Source: a virus (taxonomy: Duplodnaviria; Caudoviricetes). From it: a stretch of DNA of 64,000 bases. Below the pieces are notes generated by a model. That model was not told the DNA's origin. It made no database searches and saw only the letters and a program-made list of their open reading frames with translations. Below, one piece after another: positions 1 to 17,012 of this stretch. Location: IMG/VR virus record IMGVR_UViG_3300037424_000434, positions 64,001 to 128,000 of that record; one strand, written 5' to 3'. The position numbers were made by a program, and so were the translations under genes. Numbering within the stretch: position 1 is the first letter of the stretch; each line of letters opens with the position of its first letter.

Positions 1-61
1 CAAAGAATTGTTCGTTTTATGAAAACGAATATCAAATATAATACTCCAAAGGAAACTATCC

Positions 62-262: not shown

Positions 263-456
263 TAATAACATCGATCCCCTCTGTCCACTCTCACCACGAC
301 TTGATTAATATGTTCAAAGAAAACCCCAATAAATCCAAGTAGTTAAATGTGCGTTTATGGAATCACTATAGGTCGAACTAATAGTTATACTCACGTCTTC
401 TATATATGTAGATAACTCCCATCACCATTCAAAAGACTTATGAGAATATAAGTCTT

Positions 457-747: not shown

Positions 748-795
748 AATCAAAAAATCAATTCGATAATATCCTCTTCTCAGTGGAATAATACC

Positions 796-1086
796 ATGAA
801 TACTGTTGATGAACATTTTACTAGATCCTCTATCTATAAAAATACCCCTCTGCCCCCCAATTCAAACCTCTTACTTGTGAAAATATTAATGGGTGAATCC
901 TATAACTATTCCAAACATGTGATCGGTGAAATTTGTGTTGTTACGCCTGCGCGAGATACTGTCTATTATCGTTTTGTTGATTCACATACTCTTACCCCAC
1001 TCAATGCATATGTTCATATATCTCACTGCAATATTATCCCACAAATTATCGCCTCTCTTCTCCCCGATGATTTATTCATCTTGTAA
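796..1086 (+). CDS. Small protein with C-terminal LPDDLFIL tail
   Basis: Ends in the family motif shared with several other ORFs in this window. Confidence 0.65.
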   Translation: MNTVDEHFTRSSIYKNTPLPPNSNLLLVKILMGESYNYSKHVIGEICVVTPARDTVYYRFVDSHTLTPLNAYVHISHCNIIPQIIASLLPDDLFIL

Positions 1087-1090
1087 TTAT

Positions 1091-1098
1091 TATAAATA
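1091..1098 (+). promoter_or_regulatory. T4-type late promoter TATAAATA
   Basis: Exact consensus 38 nt upstream of ORF 1136. The same octamer occurs at 2522, 4975, 34435, 35991, 36485, 44641 (+) and 23130, 29323, 30824 (-). Confidence 0.75.
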
Positions 1099-1135
1099 TA
1101 CATGTACTTAACCTCAATCTATTCACAGGTCTTTT

Positions 1136-1594
1136 ATGAAATTTAAACAATTTATTAATGAAAAATATCTTACCACCTTCTCCAATGCCGGAAATAACAT
1201 CGAAGTCTTCCTTAACCCCTCATCCAAAGAACTTAGAGATATTCCCTCCTTCCCCGCATATAGATTCTTGATCAATTTCAAAACTAAAGAATTCTATGCT
1301 TGGCATGTCAACACCTTCCACGATAACATTATGGACTTTGTCTCTTCCAAAAATCTTGCAAAATTTCCCAAGTTTAAAGAATATTGGTATGGTCACAAAA
1401 ATAATGACTACATCTTTACTGGTTCTGTTGACCCGGATGGCTCCGTTTACTCTGATCATATGTATACTCTGAAAAAAGATGGCGATAACCTCAAATTACT
1501 TAAACATGACTTCTCTTGGCTTAAACACTTCATTAATATCAACAAACTTAAAGATCTACTCCTTGCTGATGATATACATATTGTCGATGATTAA
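1136..1594 (+). CDS. Putative capsid-internal protein, paralogue family A
   Basis: N-terminus MKFKQFINE, late promoter upstream, core VFLNPSSKELRDIPSFPAYRFLINFKTKEFYAWHV shared with 2666..3118. Confidence 0.7.
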   Translation: MKFKQFINEKYLTTFSNAGNNIEVFLNPSSKELRDIPSFPAYRFLINFKTKEFYAWHVNTFHDNIMDFVSSKNLAKFPKFKEYWYGHKNNDYIFTGSVDPDGSVYSDHMYTLKKDGDNLKLLKHDFSWLKHFININKLKDLLLADDIHIVDD

Positions 1595-1755
1595 ATAATA
1601 CACTATTTTTTTATCTCTTATTCCTTTACTTTTCATACCCAATATGATATCCTCTTAGTAATCAATAGGAAACTTTCCTTTTTACACCACTAAAAAGCTT
1701 TGTATGAGAACCTTCGAACTGATCATTAAACCATTTACCCTAATAGAGAAACAAC

Positions 1756-2034
1756 ATGAAATATTCATTCAATATTGATGATAAAGTCAAACTGACTACC
1801 ATACAATATCATGACTCTGAATATAACCCTATATGGAACGGCATTCATGGCCAAATTGAGGGAACAATATCTGAAATCTATGAGTTTGTCTGCGGCATTA
1901 GGTATAGAGTTTTATGGGATAATAACATTGCCAATTCATATTATGCAGAAGACTTGTCTCTCATTAAACCTGTCAATATATTACTCTTTAATCCTGTCAA
2001 TATGTTACTGAATGAAGATCTATTCACTTTATAA
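1756..2034 (+). CDS. KOW/SH3-like small protein with LNEDLFTL tail
   Basis: FNIDDKVKL...G(T)I...RVLWDN...SY pattern resembles a KOW/SH3 barrel; family tail motif. Confidence 0.7.
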   Translation: MKYSFNIDDKVKLTTIQYHDSEYNPIWNGIHGQIEGTISEIYEFVCGIRYRVLWDNNIANSYYAEDLSLIKPVNILLFNPVNMLLNEDLFTL

Positions 2035-2186
2035 AATATATTTAAAATAGTGGGGCAAAATGCCCCACTAGTTCCTTTACATGTCCCATAATATATGTTA
2101 CCCTATATATACTCTTGCTCTGTAAAAGATAAAACAGTAAATAATGTTTTTTAATATTCACTCTTTAACAAAAGGCTCTATTCCAT

Positions 2187-2471
2187 ATGAATTTTAATAT
2201 AGGCGATAAAGTGGTATTATCCAAAGATGTCCTAGATGAAATATATTCACCGGGTTGCGATTATATCGAGGAATTCGTTGCTCATGTCAAATCTCAAGAA
2301 CATCCCATTTATACTATCACGGGGTTTGATGGTGGCATGTATCGTACCGATGCCAAACGTTCCATTCTCTTCTCCATTACCTTGTTTTGGCTATTTCATG
2401 AACACGAAATTGTTCATGTGTCGAAATATTTTGACACGGTTCATCTCCCGGATCATCTGTTTACTTTATAA
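2187..2471 (+). CDS. KOW/SH3-like small protein with LPDHLFTL tail
   Basis: FNIGDKVVL start; family tail motif. Confidence 0.7.
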   Translation: MNFNIGDKVVLSKDVLDEIYSPGCDYIEEFVAHVKSQEHPIYTITGFDGGMYRTDAKRSILFSITLFWLFHEHEIVHVSKYFDTVHLPDHLFTL

Positions 2472-2665
2472 TTCCTATGTATCAATATGGTACCATTACT
2501 TCTCCCTTCATATATTCTTTATATAAATACAAGTAACATAAATAAACTATATACACCAAAAAATATAAATGCTCTATTATCTCAAGGTTGGATATGGACT
2601 GATAACTATCTTGTTACTAAAACTATACTAAAAAATAATCAAAATAATCAAAACAAAGGCTTAAT

Positions 2666-3118
2666 ATGAGACTATATAACTATCTATATGAACGGTACCT
2701 AACATCTGTTGAAACTAACCACAATATGGAAATATTCCTTAATCCATCTGCGGAAGAATTAAGAAGTATACCCTCCTTCCCAGAGTATAGATTCTTAATC
2801 AATTTTAAAACTAAAGAATTCTATGCTTGGCATGTCCAAATGTTCCATGTATCTGCTATGGATTGGATACGACATGAACATCTCTCCTTATTGCCAGACT
2901 TTAATCAATACTGGAATGGTAAAAATAATGACTTTTTGTTCACTGGTTCTGTTGATCCAGATAAAACAATACACTCTGATCTCATAACTAGTGTTATAGA
3001 AAATGGCGATAATCTCAAATTACTTAAATTTGACTTCAAATGGATGAAACAATATATCGATATTAAAGAACTCGAATATCTATTGCTACATGGTGATAAA
3101 AAGAAAAAATGGCGATAA
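2666..3118 (+). CDS. Putative capsid-internal protein, paralogue family A
   Basis: N-terminus MRLYNYLYE; clear paralogue of 1136..1594; TATAAATA at 2522. Confidence 0.7.
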   Translation: MRLYNYLYERYLTSVETNHNMEIFLNPSAEELRSIPSFPEYRFLINFKTKEFYAWHVQMFHVSAMDWIRHEHLSLLPDFNQYWNGKNNDFLFTGSVDPDKTIHSDLITSVIENGDNLKLLKFDFKWMKQYIDIKELEYLLLHGDKKKKWR

Positions 3119-3174
3119 TCCCTTGTCTCTACCCCCCTTTTATGTTATCATTGTCTTTAATATAAACTATTTAC

Positions 3175-3450
3175 ATGGAGATTCCTTTGGATAACATATT
3201 CATAATAGGTGATAGAGTCATTCTTACTTCTAATACATATCCCGATAAAATTTCCAATCCCAGATGGAATGGATATTTTGGCCAAATTATTGGATCTGTA
3301 ACTCACTCTTTTACTCCAAGTATTAATGTTCTTACCGTTTTTGTTGAATGGGATAATGGAGCACATAACTCATATTATCCCTTTGACTTGTCTCTATATC
3401 AAAATATGTCCCCACCTATTCAGTTCCCTGAGGATCTATTCATTTTATAA
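3175..3450 (+). CDS. KOW/SH3-like small protein with FPEDLFIL tail
   Basis: IGDRVIL...NPRWNG...VEWDNGAHNSY; paralogue of 1756..2034. Confidence 0.7.
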   Translation: MEIPLDNIFIIGDRVILTSNTYPDKISNPRWNGYFGQIIGSVTHSFTPSINVLTVFVEWDNGAHNSYYPFDLSLYQNMSPPIQFPEDLFIL

Positions 3451-3915
3451 ACCCTTATTTGAAAATAATATATTCTACCTATTCCTTCTCTAGTCTACGG
3501 AACAATATTGCCCCATGTCAAAAAGTCTGTCTATACCCCCCCCCCACCTAAACCCTTTCTAATATGTCTAACTTATTAATATCATTAGAAAAATATCACA
3601 CTACATATGATATAAAATAATGGGGCATTTTGCCCCTATTCAATGAAGGTATCTATTCCTCTCCCACTCCTATGTACTCTTTGTTTATATATAACTAATA
3701 TTGTTGTATTATTTCCTGATGCCAATAAATTCTTTGATACCAAAGAATAAAATATCTGTTTTTTAATGATGATTTTATAATTCCTTTGATACCAAGGGGA
3801 AACAGTGTGTCAACTGTTATAAAGTTAAACGATCCCATCGAGTCCGAGTCATTTTGAAAAATATTTTTCTCTCAACCCTACATTTAAAACTAGACATTCA
3901 ATTTTTCATATACAC

Positions 3916-3981
3916 TGATATTTACTGGGTCAAGTGAGGTTTTGCACCTAGGCCGGATACAACTTTTAACCATATCTGGTA
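3916..3981 (+). repeat. 66-bp perfect direct repeat, copy 1
   Basis: TGATATTTACTGGGTCAAGTGAGGTTTTGCACCTAGGCCGGATACAACTTTTAACCATATCTGGTA, identical to 4882..4947. Confidence 0.95.
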
Positions 3982-4262
3982 TATTCATATCATTAAAAAT
4001 CTAGAAAATGGAGGTAAAAATATACCATGAATGGTTGATATCATTAGAAATTATCTTAATGAAAGTATAAATTAATGAAAGGAAAGAGGGGTTAAGTGAG
4101 GTTTTCCCCTAGGGAAAGTATGATACATATATGGTATATTATAACATAGAAGGTAGAGGAAATATAAATATAGGAGAGAGAGAGAGAGAAAATTAATAGA
4201 AGTTGTGAACCTCGGAAAAGCTGGGGGCAGGAGAATTAATGAATATATAAGGGGGAAAGAGA

Positions 4263-4493
4263 ATGCCACATAGAGAAATGACCAGTATGAGGAAATATTA
4301 TGTATATTGGAAACCGATCTTATCTGAAGAAGATTGGGTAATGATACCAATACCCTTTTATACAACCCTCGAAGAAGCATGGAAACGTGCTAGACGTTGT
4401 AATGAATTATTCCCCCAGAATGAACATGTAGCAAGTTTTGCTAATGAGCCTCCTAGACGCAGCTCCTATCTGGATTTAGATATTTTTGATTAA
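4263..4493 (+). CDS. Hypothetical protein
   Basis: 76-aa ORF with purine-rich leader. Confidence 0.5.
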   Translation: MPHREMTSMRKYYVYWKPILSEEDWVMIPIPFYTTLEEAWKRARRCNELFPQNEHVASFANEPPRRSSYLDLDIFD

Positions 4494-4535
4494 AGATAAA
4501 TACATATAACATTAACACAAGGAGAACATATCCCA

Positions 4536-4703
4536 ATGAAATTCAATGAATATCTTACTGAAGGGTATAATAGAAGAACGGTTGACAAGGCGATCAACAT
4601 GTTTTTTGATATGTTGGATAAAAAGGAAACGTCAAATCAAGACATACAAGATCATATCGAATGGATAGTTGCTGAACTAAAATTACAAGCAAAACATAGA
4701 TAA
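4536..4703 (+). CDS. Putative capsid-internal protein (55 aa, below the ORF-track cutoff)
   Basis: AGGAG RBS; translation MKFNEYLTEGYNRRTVDKAINMFF...QAKHR; GATAAATA upstream. Confidence 0.65.
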   Translation: MKFNEYLTEGYNRRTVDKAINMFFDMLDKKETSNQDIQDHIEWIVAELKLQAKHR

Positions 4704-4727
4704 TAAACATTCTCATAGGTCACTTAT

Positions 4728-4778
4728 AAACCGAATGAAGTATATGTCTTCTCTAAAAGAAACATTCTCATTCGGTTT
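4728..4778 (+). terminator. Long hairpin followed by T-tract
   Basis: AAACCGAATGA/TCATTCGGTTT 11-bp arms downstream of ORF 4536; homologous to 5276..5327. Confidence 0.65.
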
Positions 4779-4881
4779 TTTCTTCTACAACCTCAAATAA
4801 GCTTTCTTAATATCAACCATACACTATATATAGTATGCCCCCCATTCTATCTAATTAATACATATAAAAAAACATATACAT

Positions 4882-4947
4882 TGATATTTACTGGGTCAAG
4901 TGAGGTTTTGCACCTAGGCCGGATACAACTTTTAACCATATCTGGTA
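4882..4947 (+). repeat. 66-bp perfect direct repeat, copy 2
   Basis: Identical to 3916..3981. Confidence 0.95.
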
Positions 4948-5011
4948 AATCTATATCACAGAAAATCGAGAAAATATAAATATACAAGAGAACAGAATAC
5001 AGGAGAACGCA

Positions 5012-5245
5012 ATGATTAATGAAACAGTAGAGAAGTATTTGGTCGAAGGAAATGATCCTACAGGTGATTTCCATGGAACAGCGAGAAATGGTGTGTGGAG
5101 ATATTATGGGATGAATAACCAACAAATAGAATTTAAGTCCATGAATGGGGAACATTACCCAGAGAAGATGACAGCAAAAGAATTGATTGCATTAAAAGGT
5201 AAAGTAAAGAACTGGGAGTATTCCCCTAGAGGAAGTTTGTTCTAA
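5012..5245 (+). CDS. Putative capsid-internal protein
   Basis: AGGAG RBS, TATAAATA at 4975, N-terminus MINETVEKYLVEG. Confidence 0.65.
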   Translation: MINETVEKYLVEGNDPTGDFHGTARNGVWRYYGMNNQQIEFKSMNGEHYPEKMTAKELIALKGKVKNWEYSPRGSLF

Positions 5246-5275
5246 ACAGAACAATCATCTGACAAACAAGACATT

Positions 5276-5327
5276 GACCGAACAGTGTATGTATTCTCCC
5301 TAGAGGAAATACATCATTCATTCGGTC
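5276..5327 (+). terminator. Long nested hairpin followed by T-rich tract
   Basis: GACCGAA/TTCGGTC outer arms, ATGTATT/AATACAT and CTC/GAG inner arms. Confidence 0.6.
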
Positions 5328-5377
5328 TTTTCTTTATCTCACCGAACAAAATTATTTTGATTTGTGTACGATTTTGT

Positions 5378-5411
5378 TTGACTGAGCTGGACGTTGCGTG
5401 GTATAATGGAA
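5378..5411 (+). promoter_or_regulatory. Sigma70-like promoter, left arm of a 34-bp inverted repeat
   Basis: TTGACT-N18-TATAAT with TG extension; reverse complement (2 mismatches) of 5734..5767. Confidence 0.7.
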
Positions 5412-5430
5412 TTGACGACCTAAAATTTTT

Positions 5431-5720
5431 ATACCATATCTTATGTATTATCTATAGTTAGATATTACAATTATAAATCATGCCAAAAGTTATTCACACC
5501 CTATAACACATAACGTCGTATAACGTATATTATGTAAACTAGAGAAAATTAATTTAAATCACAAACCCGCATAAACACTGGGCTAGCGAGGACACATTAT
5601 ATGGTATATAATAATATACATAGCTCATATTGAATATGTTGATATCTTTTGGTGTATTATTAGAGCATTACTCTATATGGTATACTCATGATATGGTATA
5701 TACATACTATATATGGTATC
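5431..5720. repeat. Iteron-like (T/G)ATATGGTAT repeats
   Basis: Copies at 5598, 5674, 5690 and 5710 (+) and 5431 (inverted), all between the two convergent promoters. Confidence 0.7.
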
Positions 5721-5733
5721 AATAATCATTCAC

Positions 5734-5767
5734 TTCCATTATAACACACAACGTCCAGCTCAGTCAA
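5734..5767 (-). promoter_or_regulatory. Sigma70-like promoter, right arm of the 34-bp inverted repeat
   Basis: TTGACTGAGCTGGACGTTGTGTGTTATAATGGAA on the minus strand, converging on the 5378 copy. Confidence 0.7.
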
Positions 5768-6451
5768 TCATTCAATGATTATAATCCTTTAATGTGATAT
5801 CATGCCAACTATGATTAATATATAGTTATAATAATCTCATTAAGAGACTAAAGCTACGCCTTGGGGGCCAATAACATATATGAGAGAAAATACCACAAAA
5901 AACAGAGAAAATGAAGATATTTTGTATATGTGAGCTATGGTATAGACTATCATACAAGGTAATAAGATAATATATACAAGAAGTTGTATGAATATATGCA
6001 AGAAATGGACTAGACATTGAACTAGACATTACATATAGGGTAAAAACGCATCATATAGGGGTGGAAGGGGTGTATAGGGGGTATATCGTTCAAAAACGAA
6101 ACAGAACCCTGTTAATTGAGGACGAATAGGGGTCCCATGTGGTATACTCAATGTATGTCAACTTTTTTGACTTCATCTCTCAAAACTTTTTTTGATACAT
6201 CTAGAACACAAGAGGCATCCACAGGGTTTATAGGTAACCCATACTTTTTAAAAACAGATTAGTGTTCATATATAAAAACGTATTCTAATCTAGGATATTA
6301 AAAAATTTTTTGGGGGGATTTTTTTCATTGAAAACCCTAAAACTTTTTCTGGAAAAACACCAGTTTTTCTAAAAGAATAACCCTATAACTACCCGGAATC
6401 ACTAGGGTTATAGGGTTAAGAAAAAAAAAAGGGGGGGGGGGGGGGGAGGTT

Positions 6452-6943
6452 TTATTTCACCTTAGTCAAGACCCGAAGGTGGAGGCATTGCACGTTATAG
6501 CCGCCCGCGCGAATGGTGTTAATCGTTACGCGCTTTGTACCGGCATTGGTATTCACCTCAAACACGCCGTTGAAGCCGTCATGGGTATGCGTGAATTCTT
6601 CGCTTAAGACTTCGGTAACGCCAGCTTTGTTAAGTTTGGCGGCAATGCTGGCATTGCGTTTATTGGCAATTGCTTTGCAATTTTTGGTTACGAATTCTTC
6701 AATCATTGCGGCGTTACAACCGTTGAAAGCCTTGTACCAAGTCTTACCGCCCGCGATAGCATGAAGTTTGCTGTAATAAGACCATTGGTCGCCGCGCAAA
6801 TTTTGGCCTTCTTCCGACGCTTTGAATTCGCGAATTGCCTGAACCCGACCCTTTGCCCATTCTTGTGAAGCGGTCAAAACTTCGGCATCCATCGGGGCGA
6901 AGACTTCTGCAAGTTTAGTGATAATTTTTGTGGAAGCGGTCAT
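6452..6943 (-). CDS. Conserved phage early protein (AGGYNxQxLHxR C-terminal motif)
   Basis: GGAG RBS before MTASTK; C-terminal TIRAGGYNVQCLHLRVL resembles a widespread phage hypothetical family; visibly higher GC than the flanks. Confidence 0.7.
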   Translation of the reverse strand: MTASTKIITKLAEVFAPMDAEVLTASQEWAKGRVQAIREFKASEEGQNLRGDQWSYYSKLHAIAGGKTWYKAFNGCNAAMIEEFVTKNCKAIANKRNASIAAKLNKAGVTEVLSEEFTHTHDGFNGVFEVNTNAGTKRVTINTIRAGGYNVQCLHLRVLTKVK

Positions 6944-6980
6944 ATTCGTTTCTCCTTCGCTGTATTGTCTCGATAATTGA

Positions 6981-7008
6981 ATTATATCATATAACGAAAC
7001 CATGTCAA
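6981..7008 (-). promoter_or_regulatory. Sigma70-like early promoter
   Basis: TTGACA-N16-TATAAT with TG extension upstream of 6943. Confidence 0.7.
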
Positions 7009-7405
7009 GAACTTTTTAAAGTCGGGCAAAAACCCCACCCGAGTTCTGTTTCTGATTTCACCAATTGTTTATGTGTCATAATTCAAGCATCCACTGGGGA
7101 TATGGGGATATGCGGTTCCAATGAGGCTATATAGAATACCCTTATTTGTGTCACTGGAAAATTTTTCATAAGAATATTTAATATTACCAACAGTCCCCTT
7201 GAGGACAATGCCAGTTAACGAATCAGCCAAAATATGAGCAACAACAAATGAATCGACATTATATTCATATACAGGCAGGTATTTGGTTGGCAGGGTACCA
7301 GAGATCCAGAGGCAGGCGGGACTTTCAAGAAAACAAGCGTTATATGGTTAAATACTTTTTTGACACGAACAAAACTTTTTGAAAGTTTTTATGGAATATC
7401 AACAA

Positions 7406-7774
7406 TTACGTGGGTTTTTTTAATGTTTCCGTGATATGCCTTACGAGGGACCAGCGCAACCTTCCATATACAGTTTGACGACTGAAGGTTTCGCCTTTTC
7501 TAGCGGCGTCACAGAAAGAGATATTGGCTCTTTGAATCCCCGGAAATTTTATTGGATACAAATAGTTGCCTGAAAATTTATCCCAGCTTTGATAGGTACT
7601 ATCAATCATTCTCAAAACACCCCCACACGAGACAATATCAAAATACTTTTCGAGATTTCCGCAAATACCTGTATGGGGATTTGGAGAGACTTCACCGGAC
7701 AACCATGACTCTAAAATCTTGATCACAAGTGTTTTCTGTTGTATATCGAATATATCAAATGGGGATTTGCTCAT
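7406..7774 (-). CDS. Hypothetical protein
   Basis: 122-aa ATG ORF in the leftward early array. Confidence 0.6.
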   Translation of the reverse strand: MSKSPFDIFDIQQKTLVIKILESWLSGEVSPNPHTGICGNLEKYFDIVSCGGVLRMIDSTYQSWDKFSGNYLYPIKFPGIQRANISFCDAARKGETFSRQTVYGRLRWSLVRHITETLKKPT

Positions 7775-7873
7775 TCGTATTTTTCAGGCTCCCCGCAAAA
7801 TCTGCATTTTCGTTGTCCATGTGGGTCGAACTGGTTCTCAAAAAAGTGTCCGTATACCCAACATAATTTAGCT

Positions 7874-8101
7874 CTAGCCCTGCTCCATTTGCTTGCCATC
7901 CCTATCTCCTTTGTCCGCCGCCAGCATTGACCTATTGGTTGTCTTATTGGGATCATCAGGGTGATAGTTATCATACCCGTGCCGCAAAATTTTACCGATG
8001 ATTTGTTGGGCTTCGCCCAACTCTTCGAGAAGGTGCGCCAGCCGCTCTGTTTCTGCTGGCGTCAATTTGTTGTAATGATCCATTTTGCTTCCTTTCGTCA
8101 T
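7874..8101 (-). CDS. MazG-like nucleotide pyrophosphohydrolase, probably C-terminally truncated
   Basis: ERLAHLLEELGEAQQIIGKILRHG matches the phage MazG-like EExxE helix; a second acidic motif is not seen. Confidence 0.5.
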   Translation of the reverse strand: MTKGSKMDHYNKLTPAETERLAHLLEELGEAQQIIGKILRHGYDNYHPDDPNKTTNRSMLAADKGDRDGKQMEQG

Positions 8102-8337
8102 TTATTTAATACGAAGTTCTTCTTCCAGTAGACAGAACTGATGCTGAATTTGGTTGAAGTCCTCTGCAACATAAGCCATAAACTGGCCAGCGTGTTCACG
8201 CTGCTTGTTCTCAGCAACCATCCCCTCGCGGGTGGTGATCAACGCTTCAAATTTACAACGGAACATCAATTCTTGACGAGCGGCCTTCAACTCTTTTTCT
8301 TTTTGAAATTCAACCAGTGCCAATTCTTTTTAAGCAT
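8102..8337 (-). pseudogene. Early gene with a -1 A in its 5' A-run relative to paralogue 9610..9843
   Basis: Leader and first codons match 9819..9862 but with A5 instead of A6; restoring one A gives MLKKELALVEFQKEK. Confidence 0.55.
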
Positions 8338-8389
8338 GACTTTCTCCTATTGGTTGTGAGAGCAAGCTCTCTCGGTATCCTTTAACTAA

Positions 8390-8418
8390 AGCATACATCA
8401 ATATAAATTTAATGTCAA
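8390..8418 (-). promoter_or_regulatory. Sigma70-like early promoter
   Basis: TTGACA-N17-TATGCT. Confidence 0.7.
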
Positions 8419-8476
8419 CAAAAAATAAGAGGTTCGTCGTCCATGTTGTTTTCCCGGTGTATCAGGCTCAGTTATC

Positions 8477-8833
8477 TCAATCATTTATTTCTTGCCCATG
8501 TTCGCAGAATCTGCATGGGAACTCGTTGGTTTCTGTATTGTTATGTTTGCAGTCAATACATTGCCCCCATATCCCCTCGTCATAGGAACCCTCATTATGG
8601 AAACCAAACGGTTCGTGTCTATTTTTGTATTTAATTCTATGGTGACAACAGGGGCATTCTCTATATTGAGTTGTTTGTGGGGAGACACTGGATGTCATTG
8701 CGGTGATAGCGGCATCGGCCACAAGGGCATAGTCCTGCCATCGTTTTTCGTTGCCCCTAGCATCACCAGCGGTATCTGGTGATTCGTCACAGGCAATACA
8801 TATCGCTCTCGCCACGGCTTCTCTTGTTTCCAT
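8477..8833 (-). CDS. Hypothetical Zn-ribbon protein
   Basis: Start METREA; CPCC, CIDC and CRFC motifs. Confidence 0.55.
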   Translation of the reverse strand: METREAVARAICIACDESPDTAGDARGNEKRWQDYALVADAAITAMTSSVSPQTTQYRECPCCHHRIKYKNRHEPFGFHNEGSYDEGIWGQCIDCKHNNTETNEFPCRFCEHGQEIND

Positions 8834-8844
8834 TTTTCTCTCCT

Positions 8845-9126
8845 TTACATATAAGTAACAGTGGTTACTGTGCATCCGGGGAACATTTTCCTTGCAATCT
8901 TTTCAGCTTTTTTGTGGTTACATTTTTCTTTTGCGCCGTTTTTAATTTCAATCGTTATCACTTCGATATGTGATTGAACCCAATAACCATCATTCCCCCG
9001 GTAATTTAATTTGACTTCGTATGATTCACGGAGAACAATTTCTTTATGTTTTTTCATTATGGGTATATCAGTGCTCCTCTTGTGTCGGTCTATATAGCAA
9101 CTTAAAATATTGTTGAGCTTTTTCAA
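8845..9126 (-). CDS. Hypothetical protein
   Basis: ORF in the leftward array. Confidence 0.5.
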   Translation of the reverse strand: MKKLNNILSCYIDRHKRSTDIPIMKKHKEIVLRESYEVKLNYRGNDGYWVQSHIEVITIEIKNGAKEKCNHKKAEKIARKMFPGCTVTTVTYM

Positions 9127-9141
9127 GTGCTTTTAATACGG

Positions 9142-9306
9142 TCATAATTCCTTATGATTTACCGTAAAAGTAATATCTTCGAGAAATTTTTTGAATTCGG
9201 GATTGGTGAAATATTCGCGGCAAATTTCTATATTTGCTATCTGGTCCGCATTTTTCGAATTTTTTATTGCGTTGTTAAAAATTTCTTTTGCTTGTTCTGT
9301 TGTCAT
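9142..9306 (-). CDS. Small hypothetical protein (54 aa)
   Basis: GGTGAG RBS; MTTEQAKEIFNNAIKNSKNADQIANIEICREYFTNPEFK. Confidence 0.5.
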   Translation of the reverse strand: MTTEQAKEIFNNAIKNSKNADQIANIEICREYFTNPEFKKFLEDITFTVNHKEL

Positions 9307-9609
9307 GATTCTCACCTATTTTATGGGGGCAATGTTATATGATTTCGTTGTCTGCGATAAATTCCGATCCGCAAGGGGTCCATAGAAGGTCGTCCAAGTT
9401 GTTATAGTCAATCACAACAGAACCTGTCAAGCAACTATCGCAAACCCAATTCCTCAATTCCTCAACCAGTTCCACCTCGCTATCGAATCTCTTCGACCAT
9501 CCGGGGTTGGAGCATTTATGCAAACATAGTCTTTCCACTGAACCTCCAAAACACAACAATTACTTCTGTGGGATTGTTGACCGTTCAACCAATCCTTTAC
9601 ATGGTTATT

Positions 9610-9843
9610 CTAACTTCTGTGCAAATTTCCGTGCAACCCACAGTGATCAGCCCAGCAAGTGCAACAGCCATTACTTTGAGCGACCTTCAACGCTTTTTCG
9701 TGAAATTCAACCAGCTCCAGTTTTCCTCTTTTGAGGAGAGCGATATATTCACCGTGACCTCGTTCTGCGAGTGCTACGGCTTGGCTACGGCTCAGGTGGT
9801 TCATCACAGTAAAGATATCCAGTGCCAATTCTTTTTTAAGCAT
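9610..9843 (-). CDS. Early hypothetical protein (MLKKELAL cassette)
   Basis: AGGAG RBS; promoter TTGACA-N17-TATAGT at 9893..9921. Confidence 0.65.
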   Translation of the reverse strand: MLKKELALDIFTVMNHLSRSQAVALAERGHGEYIALLKRGKLELVEFHEKALKVAQSNGCCTCWADHCGLHGNLHRS

Positions 9844-9993
9844 GTCTTTCTCCTATTGGTTGGGGGATTGTCTTGTCGTTTACTATACACAAACTATACA
9901 CCAATAACTATTTGATGTCAACACAAAACAACCAAAGTGGTTTAGATCCACGAACATCAATGATGTCCGTGATGCATTCCTCGTTATTAAAGG

Positions 9994-10335
9994 CTAGTTA
10001 TTTGGACGCGATAGTTCTATACGATCATATAGGTCTTCTAGACTGTTTGTTTGGTCTCTTAGTCTAGTAGATATATAATCAATATCCGAGGCCAGTGGTG
10101 TAAGAAAACCGTTTTCACCTGCTGCATCTTCTTCCGTAGAAACCGGAAGTGCGGGCCTAGTCACGCTTGTTAAAATGTCATTCAGGTGTCTGATAATGGT
10201 TTCATTTCGTTCCAGAGCGGAATAGAGATTGCCCATCGCCTGTGTAATTTCTGCTGTTTTGTTGTTTGTAACTTCCCCTGCCGGGGAGTGGTTTTGTTTT
10301 GTCTTCACGATGCTGTTAGGATCTAGCGTATACAT
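9994..10335 (-). CDS. Hypothetical coiled-coil protein
   Basis: GGAG RBS; 113 aa. Confidence 0.6.
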   Translation of the reverse strand: MYTLDPNSIVKTKQNHSPAGEVTNNKTAEITQAMGNLYSALERNETIIRHLNDILTSVTRPALPVSTEEDAAGENGFLTPLASDIDYISTRLRDQTNSLEDLYDRIELSRPNN

Positions 10336-10359
10336 AAAATTTTCTCCTCTCTAAATATA

Positions 10360-10560
10360 TTAATTAATTTCTTCAAAATTGTCAATAAAATATTGACGTG
10401 CGACATACCACAAATCGGAATGGTTCTTTGGATTCCGGGCTATCATTCCCATATCAGTTTCAGGGAAATCAACATCAGACACAGAAATACCGGTCATATT
10501 CTCTCCCTGAACATACTCTCTCATTTCTGCTACATTGGTCCTTCGATATTTTTTATACAT
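10360..10560 (-). CDS. Conserved small phage protein
   Basis: GGAGG RBS; KYRRTNVAEMREY...MIARNPKNHSDLWYVARQYF resembles a common phage hypothetical family. Confidence 0.65.
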   Translation of the reverse strand: MYKKYRRTNVAEMREYVQGENMTGISVSDVDFPETDMGMIARNPKNHSDLWYVARQYFIDNFEEIN

Positions 10561-10648
10561 ATTTGTACCTCCTTTGTTATTTTCTTTGTCATTAAAGCAA
10601 TCCTTTTGATAACAACATTAACCAAGACACATGTTTTATTGCTATGGT

Positions 10649-10948
10649 TTATTCAGAATCGTCTTCATGTACATATAATGTTTGTTCTAGATACGATCCA
10701 ACACGGTGCTTTAGACCACATGTACAAGTTTTGTCATAATACCCAAAATCACACGAAGATGGATGTTCAAACTCAAAATGGTTAGGCATGTCCAGTATGG
10801 CTTTTTGTAGTTTTTCGTTTTGTTTTTGAAGAACGTCCAGCTCATCCAAGGCCATAGCAATAGCTTCACTTGAAGTTGCCGAATGACCTTCACCGCAGCA
10901 CACCATGGAACTTAGCATACCTATAGCCGTGCGTATTTTGTCTCTCAC
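10649..10948 (-). CDS. Hypothetical protein
   Basis: GGAG RBS; 99 aa. Confidence 0.55.
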   Translation of the reverse strand: MRDKIRTAIGMLSSMVCCGEGHSATSSEAIAMALDELDVLQKQNEKLQKAILDMPNHFEFEHPSSCDFGYYDKTCTCGLKHRVGSYLEQTLYVHEDDSE

Positions 10949-11036
10949 GTTTCAATCTCCTTTAATGTTTTTTGATAACAATCTTTTAATAAAAAACAAA
11001 ACCTACTCTTTTTCTGTTTATCAACAAATTAGAAAC

Positions 11037-11549
11037 CTAAACTCCCGCACGGTGCTTCTCGATCCGGTCGAAAATCTCATAAACAAACGCCTCGTGTTCG
11101 TCTTTAAGATTTATTTTTGCTTTATTGAATTCATAGTATTGTTGGGCTGTATTTCCGAACTTGTAGCCCATCGCTGTCCAGTCAATAACCATATGGATAA
11201 CATCCATATAATTTTCAGCGGTTTCGTGGTGGTGGTGATTCTTCTCTTTGTGATTTTTCCACGCAGAATCAAAGCCACTGGATCTCTTGTCTTCGTCATT
11301 CACTGGGGAGAATGATGCCCTATACTGGACAAATTCTTCCTTACTGAATTTCGATAAATCGTGCGCTATCACTTCGGCCCGAAGAGTATGCCAACCACAA
11401 TCATCCCCAACCCACAACATGTCACCACAAGCGTTTGATATTTCAATAAACGCTAATCGCACATTTTCAAGATGATCTTCGAGGTAGTCTAAATACTGCC
11501 GTGTTTTGTCGATATAGTCTTGTCCTGCCATCCGATCTATAAAAGCCAT
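11037..11549 (-). CDS. HD-like (DUF5662-type) protein
   Basis: AHDLSKFS..EF..YR...AWKNHKEKNHHH..MVIDWTAM; GGAGG RBS. Confidence 0.65.
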   Translation of the reverse strand: MAFIDRMAGQDYIDKTRQYLDYLEDHLENVRLAFIEISNACGDMLWVGDDCGWHTLRAEVIAHDLSKFSKEEFVQYRASFSPVNDEDKRSSGFDSAWKNHKEKNHHHHETAENYMDVIHMVIDWTAMGYKFGNTAQQYYEFNKAKINLKDEHEAFVYEIFDRIEKHRAGV

Positions 11550-11616
11550 AATTCCTCCTTTCTGGTATCAAATATTCAGTCCATTTTCGTGTTATTGAAT
11601 TTGCTTGTCTCGGGGT

Positions 11617-11841
11617 TTATCGATCTTTTCCTTTGGTTCCCTTGATATAAGCTTCTTTGTTGAGCCTGATTTGTTCTACTGTTGCTTGTTCAGATCCGCA
11701 GTAATCACAGACAGCATAATGAAGATCCACAACAATAGGAATCCCATCAATCGTCTCATCCAATACATGTTTAGTTACCAAGTAGTCTACGTAACCTATA
11801 AAACAGATTGGGCATTTGGTTGACTCTGTTTGATTATTCAC
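11617..11841 (-). CDS. YgiT/MqsA-type zinc-finger protein without an HTH
   Basis: CPIC...DGIPIVVDLHYAVCDYCGSEQ matches the YgiT-type Zn-finger layout. Confidence 0.55.
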   Translation of the reverse strand: MNNQTESTKCPICFIGYVDYLVTKHVLDETIDGIPIVVDLHYAVCDYCGSEQATVEQIRLNKEAYIKGTKGKDR

Positions 11842-12093
11842 CGAAGTTCCTTTGGGGTTTAGTTTGTCTTGCTTGGCATGGAGACGGTTGATTGTGTTGC
11901 ACCCGAGGGAATTTAGATAAAGCCAAGTGACGCTACCCCGAATTCATATGCAGACCGCCATCCACACCACGCATCTTGAATTGACGGCAACACATAATCG
12001 CCATGTTCGTTGCGTCTCATTGTATGCTTGTTTCCCCTGAGATGGTACATTTCGAAATCCTCGCGAATTTTTGCTTCATCCATTACTATCTCC

Positions 12094-12297
12094 TTATATC
12101 TTGAACAAATCGCCATCAAAATATTCCACAACACTACTCTTTTTATGTTTGGCCAAACATCTTTTACAGGTTATATTGTCAACAACAAGCGTAAGTTTCA
12201 AGCCCTTGCCTCTTGCTCGTTTTGTTTTGCAGAGGGCTTCGTTTATGCCGTAATGTATCACCGGAACATACTCTCCGAATTTTCTCCATAAATACAT
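12094..12297 (-). CDS. Small Zn-binding protein with FDGDLFKI tail
   Basis: HY...ALC...ITCKRC motif; tail variant of the EDLF family. Confidence 0.55.
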   Translation of the reverse strand: MYLWRKFGEYVPVIHYGINEALCKTKRARGKGLKLTLVVDNITCKRCLAKHKKSSVVEYFDGDLFKI

Positions 12298-12326
12298 AAC
12301 TCTCTCGTCTCTGTCATGAACAATGG

Positions 12327-12536
12327 CTAATCGTTTTTTCGTCTATCCCCACCAATATCTTCGGTTCTGGAATATCGGCGTTTAAACGCATAACAATCAT
12401 CCCACTCATCAAGTTCCCATTTCTGAATGACCCGAACTCCCTCCCAATGTCCTTTTGAACACCAAGCCCATGGGCTACTCAAATTATACTCAGTTAGTTC
12501 TTCGCCCATTCTATACATGCATTCATCACATTTCAC
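12327..12536 (-). CDS. Cys-rich hypothetical protein
   Basis: CDEC...WCSKGHW...DC motif. Confidence 0.5.
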   Translation of the reverse strand: MKCDECMYRMGEELTEYNLSSPWAWCSKGHWEGVRVIQKWELDEWDDCYAFKRRYSRTEDIGGDRRKND

Positions 12537-12592
12537 AAATTTTTCTCCGTTGTTTGGTGATATCCAATCCTATTGTCAGCGAAAAGGGGGAA

Positions 12593-13165
12593 TCACACAA
12601 TTTGGCAATGGGAGGGCACTAAACAAACAACACCTTTCTTTTTTATAAAAAGAGCTTGTCGGTTGAAATTCCAAACAAACAATGTACTGTTATTTGGTTT
12701 ATCTGTGAGTACATCCATAACCCAAGTGTATGGCACTCCACAATCAAGATCGTCAATGTAATTATTAATATGGGCTGGTTGTGGTTCGGGGTCAGGTTCC
12801 TCTTTGTTTCCACAGGTACAATTCCCCCCACATCCCTGCCCTCCAGAATTGTTGGGTGGTGTGTTTACTTGCTCCCCTGTTGACGAGGTAAAACCTGATG
12901 GTGGGGTTTTGTGAAGAGTAGAGTCATTAGTTTCGATGTTTTTCCTATCACTTTCTGTACATGGTGATTTTATTTGTTCCTCAAAAATGTATTCTTCTTG
13001 ATTACTCGGTTCCACCTCAATCCCAAACTCTGACAATTTGCTTTTCAGTCGGGAAATATAAGATAGCTGGTCTTGCACCAAGGCATCCAGACTTTCGTTG
13101 AGTTTTCGGGATTCTTTGAGTCCGGCTAATAGTTTGCGGATTGTTGCGGTTTGGTCAATAGACAT
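12593..13165 (-). CDS. Hypothetical protein (coiled coil plus disordered linker)
   Basis: AGGAG RBS; 190 aa. Confidence 0.65.
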   Translation of the reverse strand: MSIDQTATIRKLLAGLKESRKLNESLDALVQDQLSYISRLKSKLSEFGIEVEPSNQEEYIFEEQIKSPCTESDRKNIETNDSTLHKTPPSGFTSSTGEQVNTPPNNSGGQGCGGNCTCGNKEEPDPEPQPAHINNYIDDLDCGVPYTWVMDVLTDKPNNSTLFVWNFNRQALFIKKKGVVCLVPSHCQIV

Positions 13166-13277
13166 TTGTTTCTCCTAAGCAGGATTAAGGACATAGTTAA
13201 TGGTCGTAAAAATTATATCATAACATTTCCGGGTTCTACATGTCAACAAGTTTTTGTAGATTTTTCGACATATCACA

Positions 13278-13538
13278 TTAAAGAAATAAAATCAGCCAAG
13301 CTAGAAGCTTGCACACGATATATGATCCAGTCAGCGCCGTTGGCACAGAAATCAGCCACACCACCAAATCACTCCGAAACAAACGTTGAAGTTTAGAAAA
13401 AACAAATACGAAAATAGGGACTGCAATGAAAAGAAATACCAAAAATTCAAACACAGAACTATCTCCGCTCCAGAGAAGTTTGTCCAACTCCATTTCAGTA
13501 CGTGACCTATATAAAATTATCGATCCACCATTTTGCAT
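13278..13538 (-). CDS. Putative membrane protein
   Basis: Two hydrophobic stretches. Confidence 0.5.
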   Translation of the reverse strand: MQNGGSIILYRSRTEMELDKLLWSGDSSVFEFLVFLFIAVPIFVFVFSKLQRLFRSDLVVWLISVPTALTGSYIVCKLLAWLILFL

Positions 13539-13676
13539 TTTGTTTTCTCCTTTTCTGTCTGTGTTTGTTTGTATTGACGAAGTTCTTTTTTTAATTGTTT
13601 ACCGGCGATGCAAGGCTTTTTGCATTCTCCCCCACATGAACAATCAGATTGATAGTTCATAATAAATCCTTTCTAA

Positions 13677-13949
13677 TCAATGTAAGGTTTTCAGGAAAAC
13701 CTCTCCTTTGCCTGAGAGGTAATAATAAGGGGTAAAAGATTTATGAGCATATGACCATCTCAGATCTTCTGCCAGATATCCTTCAGAAACGGCGACATGG
13801 ATGCTAGTTGATTTGAAACCATGATATTCAAGTGCTGGTCCGAAATTACATCCACCTTTACTGATGGTTTGAAGCAAGTCAACAAGATCCCTGTATGCCT
13901 TGATTTCGGTAATATTTTCTTTCCGTTTTTCTTGACTCAGTGTATTCAT
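13677..13949 (-). CDS. Hypothetical protein
   Basis: GGAG RBS; 90 aa. Confidence 0.55.
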   Translation of the reverse strand: MNTLSQEKRKENITEIKAYRDLVDLLQTISKGGCNFGPALEYHGFKSTSIHVAVSEGYLAEDLRWSYAHKSFTPYYYLSGKGEVFLKTLH

Positions 13950-14997
13950 ATGTAGTATCTCCTACCAAAGTTGGGGCCAAAAGTCAAACACAATCTAAAA
14001 TTTTTGCTTGCAGCACATCAACCCATTGTTCTGTATCCATATCGTTCAACCGATACACCATGACCATGCTGTCATCTAGCATGGGAACAGATTTGTGAAG
14101 TGGGTGAAAATAAAAGTATCCACATCCACGAACCAACTCATATCCTATGTCGGCTATTCGGTCGTTGATTTTTTTGAGTGTTAATTTCATGGATACTCCA
14201 TTGTTTCCTTTCAACAATATACCACCACGCCCTCTAAAAGTCAAGCCAAAAACGAATAACCCTCTCACATAAGTGGTGAGAGGGTATTTTTCTATTAAGT
14301 TATATGTTTATTATGTTATATTAGGGGGTTATTTAACGGGCCATCTCTGATACTATTTGTTTTTGACCGGTGTTGATGCATTTGATGTTCCTTTGGCAAA
14401 GTAAAGTTTTATTAAGTAACGTTATTGACCGTCAATACTTCAAATCATCCGCAACAAAACCACAGCTATTTGCAGAATACCCAAAATCATTATCACAAAG
14501 TCTTGCTTGTATAAAGTTGATTTGTTCCATCATGGTCTCCTATCACACGCGGGATTATATGGACACTATATCATATGTATTTTTATCAGTCAAGCTTTTT
14601 TGTTTGAACAAGAACGTTTTGTATTTGATTTTAATGCAATCAGTCCACGCCAAATCCCATACCAGAAACCACCAAAGATGGCTGTATCTTCAACGACAAT
14701 CTTTGTCGTGTCTGTCCTGACTACACAAACAGCTTCTCTAGATTCTGTCTGTTCGTTTAACTTTTTTAGTGTTTCAAGACCGTGCATACTTTTATCCTTT
14801 TTTTATAAAATAGAGGGTATAGTAAAAATAGGGAGGTACTGGCCGAGTCGGCACATATACTCCACAAAATAGATGAATCAAAATGTATGGCACACAATAT
14901 CCATATTATATTGACCAAAGATGCTTTCGCCAAAAGGTTCATTTGTCGTTAAATTCGTTGTCCAGTGAGAGTCTTGTTACGGGATATTTATATTTAT

Positions 14998-15026
14998 ATG
15001 CTACCAAGGTTACCTATGAATGTCAA
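14998..15026 (-). promoter_or_regulatory. Sigma70-like promoter containing an AGGTTACCT palindrome
   Basis: TTGACA-N17-TAGCAT with the palindrome in the spacer. Confidence 0.6.
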
Positions 15027-15070
15027 GCAAGTTTTTGAACTGATATCGAAACAGTAAGTTTACGAAGTAA

Positions 15071-15268
15071 TCAGTCCTTCCATTTCTGTTTATAGGTGTC
15101 TTTTATTTCTTGGATATTAGCGGTTGTCGTGGGCATCATAACAACATTTAATATGTATATTATGTGATCAATTAGACACGGACCCATACCAACATCTGGA
15201 TTAGAATCATCATATAATTTCCGGTATCTTGTGGCAACAGCCAAAGCTCTCACCAACTCATCAGTCAT
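15071..15268 (-). CDS. Hypothetical protein
   Basis: 65-aa ORF. Confidence 0.5.
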   Translation of the reverse strand: MTDELVRALAVATRYRKLYDDSNPDVGMGPCLIDHIIYILNVVMMPTTTANIQEIKDTYKQKWKD

Positions 15269-15495
15269 TGTATTTCCTGTTAACTCTCATTGCTTCATAC
15301 ATTTCTTCGAGAAGTTTACGGCGAGGGCATCTATAGCACTCAGCAAAAGTTTTGTCCACACATTTATCAAATGGTCTGTTTTCCGTTGGACAAAATACTC
15401 TTCTTCGCATCGACCCCCCCCTTTTTTATTTTTGAGTCATCTTCCCGTATAGATATCTGGTACAATTTACCGCAATGCCAGATTCCACGTTATCC

Positions 15496-15843
15496 TCATT
15501 TGTCCAAAAATCTCTCAAGCTCGTGTATATCCTCGATGGACCAGTCACGAAGATTAAGTTCTTTAAACATTTTTGTCACGTGATAAATAGCCAAGTTTTT
15601 TTCTTTTTCCTTGACCAGCAATGCAACCATTGACGGCGTAACATGTTCTATGGATTCTCTAAACCAGACAGAATCGCCGATCCGTATCCCTGATGTTTTG
15701 TTGTACCGTGACGCCCCGATGATCACTTGCGTCTTTGTGGTTCGATCCACAATTTTTAGTTGTTTAGAGTTTCCCGCATTGGTTGTGACAACAACATAAT
15801 CTCCGGCCACCAAATCCTTTGTCTCTTTTTGCCCATCTTTCAT
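15496..15843 (-). CDS. Hypothetical protein (SH3-like N-terminus)
   Basis: AGGAG RBS before MKDGQK; DLVAGDYVVV...VDRTTKTQVIIG..RYNKTSG. Confidence 0.6.
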   Translation of the reverse strand: MKDGQKETKDLVAGDYVVVTTNAGNSKQLKIVDRTTKTQVIIGASRYNKTSGIRIGDSVWFRESIEHVTPSMVALLVKEKEKNLAIYHVTKMFKELNLRDWSIEDIHELERFLDK

Positions 15844-16071
15844 AACAACTCTCCTTTGGTTATATTCTCTTAGATCTACATAAAAATCCACACACAACAT
15901 TACACCCGATAGACACGGTTAAATATAAAACAACAATGAATGTGGAAAACAGCATAGGAGCTCCAAAACAAGCCAACGAGGCGTTTATTATCACACACGC
16001 TACCGACCATACCCATGAGACATATGAGCCCGCCAAAAAGCCTCTCAGGAGGCTTTGGCGTATATTTGGAA

Positions 16072-16287
16072 TCATAGTGTAAATAGATCCTCGGTTAAAC
16101 TTATTTTTCTTTGTTCCCCTACCATAACTTTCCACTCAATCCTATATGCGGATTTGTTACAATGCAAGCAAGGCATTGGTAGAAAGTCACAAGAGCTTAT
16201 ATTACCATATCGACCCATGAAATGTTTATCAAGGTCCGTTTGGGACACCGGGCGTTTACAATGCGGGCATATCACGAATTTGATCAT
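16072..16287 (-). CDS. Zn-ribbon protein with LTEDLFTL tail
   Basis: CPHC, CLHC; family tail. Confidence 0.65.
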   Translation of the reverse strand: MIKFVICPHCKRPVSQTDLDKHFMGRYGNISSCDFLPMPCLHCNKSAYRIEWKVMVGEQRKISLTEDLFTL

Positions 16288-16633
16288 TTATGTATCCTAC
16301 ACCAAAAATGTTAGGCGTTACTTTATCCTGAACCACTTACAGGCCAGCATCACTATAATGCACAGCACCGGCCCTCCAATGAGTGTCATAAAAATAAACC
16401 ATATTTGAAATTCGCGGCTATATTCCATAGCGTTTGTAAAACTCCATAATCGAAATCTCAGCCCTACCACCACACTCGCTATCCCGGTATCTTGCATATT
16501 TAAAATACAGTGATTTCAATTCGTCCACGCTTAAGTGTTCCATTAGTAATTAGCCCCCACTGTAAACATTATTTCATCAAACCGTTTATGCGTTCTCAAA
16601 TAGATTTTTGTTGATCTGAAAATCCGTTTTCGA

Positions 16634-16945
16634 CTAAACCTCAAACAAGTCTTCTTGGTCAACAAAAGCATTGCTGGCAACAAGCTCGAACCAATCTTCG
16701 TGCCACTTTTGGTCACATGGATCAGTGTGTAAAGTTACAACGGGAATGTCTCCCAAATCATAGCTCAATGCAGTGACTCGCATTAAACCCAGTCCTACCA
16801 TATTACAGATCCATTCTCTAGGCCCACCCCATTGACTGTACAACCTGAAGATTTGTTTGTGGTTGATGATGCGTTCTTGGAGATTGCTTTTCAGTCTAAC
16901 CAAATCTCCCACAGCAAATTTATGTTTTTTGGGTTTAGTTGTCAT
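16634..16945 (-). CDS. KOW-like protein with DQEDLFEV tail
   Basis: KFAVGDLVRLKS...WHEDWFELV; family tail. Confidence 0.7.
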   Translation of the reverse strand: MTTKPKKHKFAVGDLVRLKSNLQERIINHKQIFRLYSQWGGPREWICNMVGLGLMRVTALSYDLGDIPVVTLHTDPCDQKWHEDWFELVASNAFVDQEDLFEV

Positions 16946-17012
16946 GTCGAATCCTTTGGGTGCAAAACATATAACTTACCATACACCACCTCGGCTCGGT
17001 AGTCAACAAAAA

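Follow-up and report, generated by a model that had tools for sequence, protein, structure and literature searches.

A recurrent acidic-hydrophobic C-terminal tail in the proteins of an uncultured T4-like phage: distribution, carriers and candidate receptors

The locus and its tails

The present work deals with a 64,000-nucleotide stretch of viral DNA, below called the window, and with a short acidic-hydrophobic peptide, the tail, which ends a number of small proteins encoded in it and many more in the remainder of the same genome. The window corresponds to bases 64001-128000 of one 235,765-bp contig, an IMG/VR viral record (IMGVR_UViG_3300037424_000434) with a CheckV completeness of 98%. The phage is a very distant T4-like virus with a family-B polymerase ~27% identical to gp43 of cyanomyoviruses. 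Homologues of gp43, gp44, gp62, gp46, gp47, gp55, gp32 and RNase H were found by phmmer searches with T4 proteins, and the 267-aa product of the open reading frame (ORF) that follows gp62 matches phrog_223, the PHROG for polymerase processivity factor. The gp44 and gp62 matches, together with the latter, indicate that the phage has its own gp45-type sliding clamp and clamp loader.

No match was obtained by megablast against phage records, and IMG/VR contained no relatives of one anchor protein. The closest relative in this database is a 51-kb fragment (G004) with a polymerase 74% identical to that of the phage; a 204-kb relative (G022) has a clamp only 33% identical to the phage clamp. Neither tRNA nor Rfam matches were found in positions 1-20000 of the window.

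Seven tail-bearing ORFs on both strands of the window had been listed in the initial annotation, and all of them were recovered at exactly the same coordinates and with the same endings (Table 1). As a count of carriers, seven proved too low, as at least 21 proteins with the tail are encoded in the whole genome, including an eighth at positions 1-22 of the window, which was missed earlier because its ORF crosses the window edge. The consensus can be written as hydrophobic (F/L/I) - P/D/E - D/E - D/E/G/S - L/M - F - any - L/I/V/M. All tails have the core [DEGSH]-[LM]-F, and the motif is followed by 0-3 residues in 20 of the 21 and by 10 residues in a homologue of the helicase UvsW.

A genome-wide comparison of terminal and internal occurrences of the motif, as proposed in the initial annotation, was carried out on 380 genes, a crude set covering the entire contig, with the fixed pattern [DE]-x(0-2)-[LM]-F-x-[LIVM], located no more than 3 residues from the end. 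There were 35 internal matches in 71,312 residues, from which 0.75 matches are expected at termini; 15 termini were found to match (Poisson 5e-15), so the motif is clearly enriched at the ends of proteins. The last six codons and the stop codon vary synonymously, with Leu encoded by TTA, CTA, CTG or TTG, Phe by TTC or TTT, and TAA, TGA or TAG used as stops, which means that the conserved object is the peptide and not a DNA element. A DNA-level repeat or a promoter at gene ends was ruled out for the same reason. The tail is a real and strongly selected C-terminal peptide, most likely a docking one, present on about 6% of the phage proteins. No description of it was found in the literature searches made.

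Table 1. Positions of the tail-bearing ORFs and of other features mentioned in the text (window numbering unless the genome is indicated)
Feature	Position	Strand	Length	Remarks
Eighth tail ORF, 3' end	1..22 (genome 63756-64022)	+	88 aa	ends N-K-E-L-F-V-L; match at genome 64005-64022
Tail ORF 796	796..1086	+	96 aa	ends LPDDLFIL; tail codons 1060-1083
Tail ORF 1756	1756..2034	+	92 aa	ends LNEDLFTL; tail codons 2008-2031; phrog_11307, phrog_9469
Tail ORF 2187	2187..2471	+	94 aa	ends LPDHLFTL; tail codons 2445-2468; second acidic residue replaced by His
Tail ORF 3175	3175..3450	+	91 aa	ends FPEDLFIL; tail codons 3424-3447; paralogue of the 1756 ORF
Tail ORF 12094	12094..12297	-	67 aa	ends FDGDLFKI; tail codons 12097-12120; one CxxC pair
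Tail ORF 16072	16072..16287	-	71 aa	ends LTEDLFTL; tail codons 16075-16098; two CxxC pairs, zinc-ribbon-like
Tail ORF 16634	16634..16945	-	103 aa	ends DQEDLFEV; tail codons 16637-16660
Possible weak tail member	49457..50155	-		D12-class N6-adenine DNA methyltransferase; ends E-K-L-F-R-Y-S-V; outside the strict pattern
ORFs with start M-[KR]-[LF]-x-x-[YF]-[LI]-x-E	1136-1594, 2666-3118, 4536-4703	+
Same start	22197-23093	-
Same start	genome 10620, 56830, 221616
GC-rich hairpin	2048-2070, 3622-3636			core GGGGCAAAATGCCCC
Direct repeat	3907-4009 and 4873-4975		103 nt	92% identical
Inverted repeat	5375-5415 and 5730-5770		41 nt	90% complementary, 314 nt apart
SSB-tip protein	17629-17994	-	121 aa	ends L-L-D-D-D-I-P-F
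Ro60/Rsr homologue	27352-28986	-	544 aa	TROVE and Ro60-type vWA domains
Sliding clamp, gp45 type	genome 4680-5483		267 aa	phrog_223
ClpP	genome 43114-43656
FG-GAP repeat protein	genome 48829-50088	-
FG-GAP repeat protein	genome 147075-147977	+
gp55 late sigma homologue	genome 173854-174486
ClpB without N-domain	genome 191777-193987		736 aa

Carriers of the tail and its distribution in relatives

Recognisable domains define three carriers as a UvsW helicase, a DUF932 protein and a metallophosphoesterase, whereas a P-loop protein, an SLOG-like protein and Cys-rich proteins were recognised by eye; DNA enzymes prevail among the carriers whose domains could be recognised. Most carriers are small proteins encoded in early-looking gene clusters. 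No Pfam or PHROG family was found for the product of the 796 ORF. The ribosome-binding site of the next gene is located after the stop codon of the 12094 ORF. The T4-type late promoter TATAAATA was not found upstream of any tail gene, and this absence ruled out the idea that tail proteins are late proteins packaged into the virion. Overall, the TATAAATA motif is only weakly enriched (49 observed against about 35 expected).

The bodies had been described as unrelated, and this is mostly true. After removal of the tail, no BLAST similarity between them was detected except for one pair with a common linker and for the 1756 and 3175 ORFs, which share 44% identity and the same PHROGs and are paralogues. 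The bodies had also been assigned to KOW/SH3-like or zinc-ribbon folds. The structure was modelled for one body, that of the 1756 ORF, by AlphaFold2, and a small beta-barrel was obtained for residues 1-72, with a predicted local distance difference test score (pLDDT) mostly of 74-87 and a dip to 61. Foldseek gave weak matches of this barrel to the SH3-like folds PetP, Tudor, PWWP and KOW. Residues 73-92, consisting of the linker and the tail, have pLDDT below 50 and are predicted to be disordered. The zinc-ribbon matches of the 16072 ORF in Pfam are weak and lie below the cut-off.

The tail is not restricted to one genome. At least 11 tails were counted in G004, 17 in G022, 7 in L086 (a metagenome locus on a 205-kb contig) and 3 in G023, a 13-kb fragment. 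Each of these phages has its own flavour of the motif. It is L-F-x-[LIV] in the genome under study, mostly L-F-[EK]-I in G004, and P-x-E-L-F-E-[LI] in six of the seven tails of small genes in L086, where Gly stands for Glu in one. In G022, the tails have the form I-P-E-x-[LM]-F-x-M, with Ile/Val-Pro ahead of the acidic pair, and Met is found two residues past Phe in 12 of the 17 tails, compared with 1 of 20 in the genome under study (Fisher 5.7e-5). The G022 homologue of the SH3-like 1756 and 3175 ORFs keeps the tail, in the G022 flavour, and a comparison of ten G022 tail proteins with Pfam gave one weak SH3 match only.

Orthologues may also be devoid of the tail, as was found for UvsW in G005, G002, G022 and L086 and for the DUF932 protein and the phosphoesterase in G024. 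A large protein collection provided 120 UvsW homologues, and the ending [FY]-[ED]-x-x-L-F with 0-3 residues after it is found in nearly all of the closest 25; the endings of UvsW orthologues grade from tail-like to polymerase-like in the series E-S-D-L-F-I-V-E, E-E-T-L-F-G and S-S-L-F-G-E. On the whole, the tail system is conserved across a deep clade of uncultured T4-like phages, being kept between phages whose core proteins share only 33-47% identity. A flavour that is uniform within each genome and differs between genomes, together with the gain and loss of the tail by orthologues, is what would be expected of a docking motif that co-evolves with one receptor, and points to one such receptor in each phage.

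It is scarcely credible, and contradicted by the data, that the tails have no common function and were left at gene ends by descent, by a repeated DNA element or by chance. The presence of two paralogues among the seven ORFs and the SH3-like fold that several bodies may share would agree with descent, but the synonymous variation of codons, the Poisson value given above, the retention of tails over the distances just mentioned and their occurrence on a helicase and on DUF932, phosphoesterase, P-loop and zinc-ribbon proteins speak against all three variants.

Most likely, the tail is a short linear motif for docking, portable between proteins, that sits at the end of a disordered linker and brings at least 21 proteins to one common receptor. 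We infer a single reader from the terminal enrichment, the selection at the peptide level, the modularity of the carriers, the disordered linker and the lineage flavour. The modular docking tag for one hub, as it was first suggested, therefore has indirect support from these features and from the unrelated folds of the carriers and the gain and loss of tails.

Candidate receptors

By analogy with T4 and RB69, we consider the best candidate receptor to be the gp45-type clamp encoded by the phage itself, and in particular its hydrophobic pocket, an assignment that falls a little short of being probable. The clamp-binding peptides of T4 and RB69 are short, lie no more than 4 residues from the C-terminus on a flexible variable linker, occur in unrelated proteins and are interchangeable (PMC2988020). 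The RB69 polymerase gp43 ends with S-L-F-D-M-F-D-F, and this C-terminal peptide was co-crystallised with the RB69 clamp (PMC2988020). Its last five residues, D-M-F-D-F, fit the tail core [DE]-[LM]-F-x-hydrophobic exactly, which makes the phage clamp, listed initially among the alternative hubs, the best-fitting candidate. T4 gp43, gp55 and gp33 end with L-D-F-L-[FYL] and 0-4 further residues (T4 record) and resemble the tails in kind without being identical to them. In the clade itself, the polymerases end with F-N-x-F-F-G, F-D-M-F-F-G, M-S-L-F-F-G-E, F-D-I-F-F or I-D-L-F-F; a core of D/N, a hydrophobic residue and F is common to these ends and the tails, while the consensus differs. The tail on UvsW, the gradation of UvsW endings between the two classes and the prevalence of DNA enzymes among the recognisable carriers also speak for the clamp.

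If the clamp is indeed the receptor, at least 21 carriers would be tethered by their tails to the hydrophobic pocket of the clamp trimer. The principle known from T4, in which gp43, gp33 and gp55 hold the clamp by acidic-hydrophobic C-terminal peptides, would then be expanded into a kind of "tool-belt" by which some twenty clients travel with the clamp on replicating DNA. The tails resemble the T4/RB69 system in being short, acidic-hydrophobic, C-terminal and placed on a linker in unrelated proteins, and the phage has both a clamp and a loader. The differences are three clients in T4 compared with about 21 tail proteins here, and a conserved hydrophobic residue that the tails have in addition at the fifth position ahead of Phe, in many cases with Pro after it. 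The same "tool-belt" logic with dozens of clients is characteristic of PCNA, whose clients bear the PCNA-interacting protein (PIP) box, often at the C-terminus in archaea. Unlike the tails, the PIP box has Gln and another spacing and other key residues, and its pattern Qxx[LIM]xx[FY][FY] fits none of the tails.

Several facts weigh against the clamp. The phage's own gp43 ends with Q-A-F-N-F-F-F-G-G, a variant distinct from the peptide of T4 and unlike the ~20 stereotyped tails, and the end of the polymerase ignores the lineage flavour (F-D-I-F-F in G022 compared with tails of the F-x-M type). No excess of tails was found in the clamp-bearing G002 (171 kb), G005, G010, G024, G017 and G028 or in T4; hence, the clamp alone does not explain the distribution of tails. 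The gp55 homologue of the clade has no C-terminal clamp peptide, which is also the case in G001 and G002, in contrast to T4. To our knowledge, there is no precedent for twenty clients competing for three pockets.

Seven E-E-I-D-I repeats follow one another at the N-terminus of the gp55 homologue, which ends with a run of Lys. No gp33 homologue was found in the phage, and a 72-aa protein encoded next to the RNase H gene, which ends with E-G-L-F-F, shows no similarity to gp33. On these grounds, a bridge to the clamp formed by gp55 or gp33 was ruled out.

The genes adjoining those of the clamp suggest another reader. They encode a ThiF-type E1 enzyme (genome 7640-8239), a JAB peptidase (8265-9335), a conserved 299-aa protein and a small ubiquitin-like (Ubl) candidate (5483-5692), and positions 5697-6185 and 6605-7504 of this region likewise encode proteins. 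It is conceivable, if rather improbable, that the tails are read by this Ubl conjugation gene set. They could be interaction motifs of the SUMO-interacting motif (SIM) or LC3-interacting region (LIR) type, docking sites through which their carriers serve as substrates or as substrate adaptors, or elements that recognise a clamp modified with Ubl. With the same low probability, the tails would form the reader or adaptor half of a phage Ubl system that marks a target, perhaps the sliding clamp in the manner of eukaryotic PCNA, and their carriers would be recruited or selected by this mark. The C-terminal tail of Srs2, a SIM, reads SUMO-PCNA. SIM, including that of Srs2, and LIR likewise combine an acidic run with a short hydrophobic core, occur in unrelated proteins and are sometimes found at the extreme C-terminus; the proximity of the Ubl set to the phage clamp adds to the likeness. 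The spacing is different, since the tails have F-x-hydrophobic rather than aromatic-x-x-aliphatic.

The distribution of the Ubl set attracts attention. It is present in all five tail-rich lineages (the genome under study, G004, G022, G023 and L086) and always adjoins the clamp. Tails are missing from three lineages whose syntenic site does not contain the set, namely G005, G010 and the group of G002. In the tree of the clamp, gp44 and gp62, two of the contrasts appear as sister pairs, G022/G005 and G023/G010, with 100% and 97% support, respectively, in the Shimodaira-Hasegawa-like approximate likelihood ratio test (SH-aLRT). In an unbiased screen of the G000 genes that are present in G022 and absent from G002, G005 and G010, only the three genes for the ThiF-type E1, the JAB peptidase and the 299-aa protein proved to occur in every other set-bearing relative. 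On the other hand, the set is accompanied by few or no tails in contigs G024 (63 kb), G017 (58 kb), G028 (120 kb) and G003 (89 kb), and in G024 the homologues of two tail-bearing proteins are tail-less. Since these contigs are all fragments and the set occurs in about two thirds of the clade, so that five of five would be reached by chance with a probability of ~0.1, the connection is a lead and not a result. Leu, Ile, Val or Met as the last residue does not suit the chemistry of E1 either, and nothing convincing was found when lysines and pockets of the clamps from set-bearing and set-less genomes were compared. The link between the tails and the Ubl gene set is, consequently, only suggestive.

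Another phage protein of replication or recombination, or one of unknown function, is an unlikely receptor, though slightly less so than the Ubl set; an example is gp32 (genome 220571-221539), the single-stranded DNA-binding protein (SSB), whose basic cleft might bind acidic amphipathic tails in the way RPA70N of eukaryotes binds them. UvsW, the SLOG-like protein and the P-loop protein are among the carriers, and if the tail is helical, its positions -5, -1 and +2 relative to Phe lie on one face. The gp32 proteins of the phage and of T4 also end with an acidic amphipathic peptide. T4 UvsW has a different acidic tail with terminal Phe, from which it follows that UvsW tails need not be clamp peptides. 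At the same time, a small phyletic screen revealed no phage gene besides the Ubl set that tracked the tails, and we know of no case of many proteins with one common motif for gp32; in the known systems, SSB itself bears the tail. The bacterial SSB tip (D-D-D-I-P-F) and the acidic tails of T7 gp2.5 and gp4 resemble the tails considered here as acidic stretches that end with an aromatic or hydrophobic plug for a pocket with a basic rim. They differ in that one hub carries the tail and many proteins read it, while in this phage many proteins carry it.

The hub could also belong to the host, for instance its beta sliding clamp, its RNA polymerase or some other conserved protein, which small early proteins would reach in the course of take-over; this is about as improbable as the Ubl set. 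The bacterial clamp-binding pentapeptide QL[SD]LF is built around D-L-F, and the resemblance of QEDLF to this motif was pointed out in the initial annotation. Like the tails, QL[SD]LF or QLxLxL is a short and often C-terminal sequence with an [SD]-L-F core that connects many proteins (Pol II, III, IV, V, MutS and Hda) to a ring-shaped hub. Most carriers are small, belong to early-looking clusters and have no late-promoter motif upstream, and the lineage flavours could reflect different hosts. A neighbouring gene ends with the host SSB tip D-D-D-I-P-F, an instance of host-tail mimicry in the same phage.

The resemblance to the beta-clamp motif is not supported by closer comparison. Gln in its first position is found in 1 of the 21 tails, that of the 16634 ORF, and for this reason the reading is weak; the second position is occupied by Asp, Glu, Gly or Ser instead of Leu, and the conserved tail positions -5 and +2 are outside the motif. 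The high conservation of the beta-clamp pocket in bacteria agrees poorly with the lineage flavours, and the phage clamp is trimeric and unrelated to it.

The least probable of the functional explanations, and a very unlikely one, is a C-terminal degron for the timed removal of early proteins by host ClpXP, ClpAP or Lon or by the phage ClpP. The phage does encode ClpP, the tails end with non-polar residues, as C-terminal degrons do, and many carriers look early. However, at least seven tails have 1-10 extra residues past the motif, often charged (E-N, W-E, S, F-P, E-S-R and the 10 residues of UvsW), which shows that a free carboxylate at a fixed distance is not required. The 736-aa "ATP-dependent protease" of the phage is ClpB without the N-domain, as follows from its end-to-end alignment with ClpB of T. 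thermophilus (E 7e-260), and no ClpP-docking tripeptide was found in it. UvsW, a repair helicase, bears the tail, and G022 has 17 tails without ClpP or ClpB. A protease adaptor on phage genes, another of the initial suggestions, is accordingly unlikely, and phage Lon or ClpA as a reader of the tail was rejected on the same evidence.

Adjacent features and the biological meaning of the tail

A number of other features were observed beside the tail genes. The 121-aa protein with the SSB tip has no family match and is encoded next to the minus-strand tail genes; judging by its sequence, it may be a mimic that competes for host SSB-binding proteins or recruits them. A second common end, this time N-terminal (M-[KR]-[LF]-x-x-[YF]-[LI]-x-E), is present on 7-11 proteins, with 11 of the 380 genes matching compared with 0.6 expected. 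It recalls the capsid-targeting sequence of the T4 internal head proteins, M-K-T-Y-Q-E-F-I-A-E. Genes with this start alternate with tail genes, the TATAAATA motif lies 38 nt upstream of the 1136 ORF, and L086 has three paralogues.

Several repeats were also found in the window. The GC-rich hairpin, which occurs twice, is terminator-like. The direct repeat lies in an ORF-poor region, and the inverted repeat is found at the meeting point of the gene blocks of the two strands, in a stretch with few ORFs; its arms carry two facing sigma-70 promoters, one in each, both close to the consensus (TTGACT, 17 nt, TATAAT). The phage homologue of Ro60/Rsr is present in G022 too (E 1e-165). FG-GAP repeat proteins give E values of about 1e-296 against G022, whose core genes are 33-47% identical to those of the phage; these extreme scores are either repeat-driven or the result of a recent exchange.

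Summarizing the above data, the tail system would be a much expanded version of the known principle of T4-type clamp peptides. Were the clamp the receptor, a clade of uncultured T4-like jumbo phages would use it as a hub for about 6% of their proteins, with a number of clients far above the three of T4, and the tail would assign a place of action, the replicating phage DNA, to about twenty otherwise unassigned proteins. Many of the tail carriers are probably host-takeover or anti-defence factors. The motif provides a simple key for genome-wide searches and a ready affinity tag for receptor hunting. A receptor that belongs to the ubiquitin-like set or to the host would make the result even more surprising.

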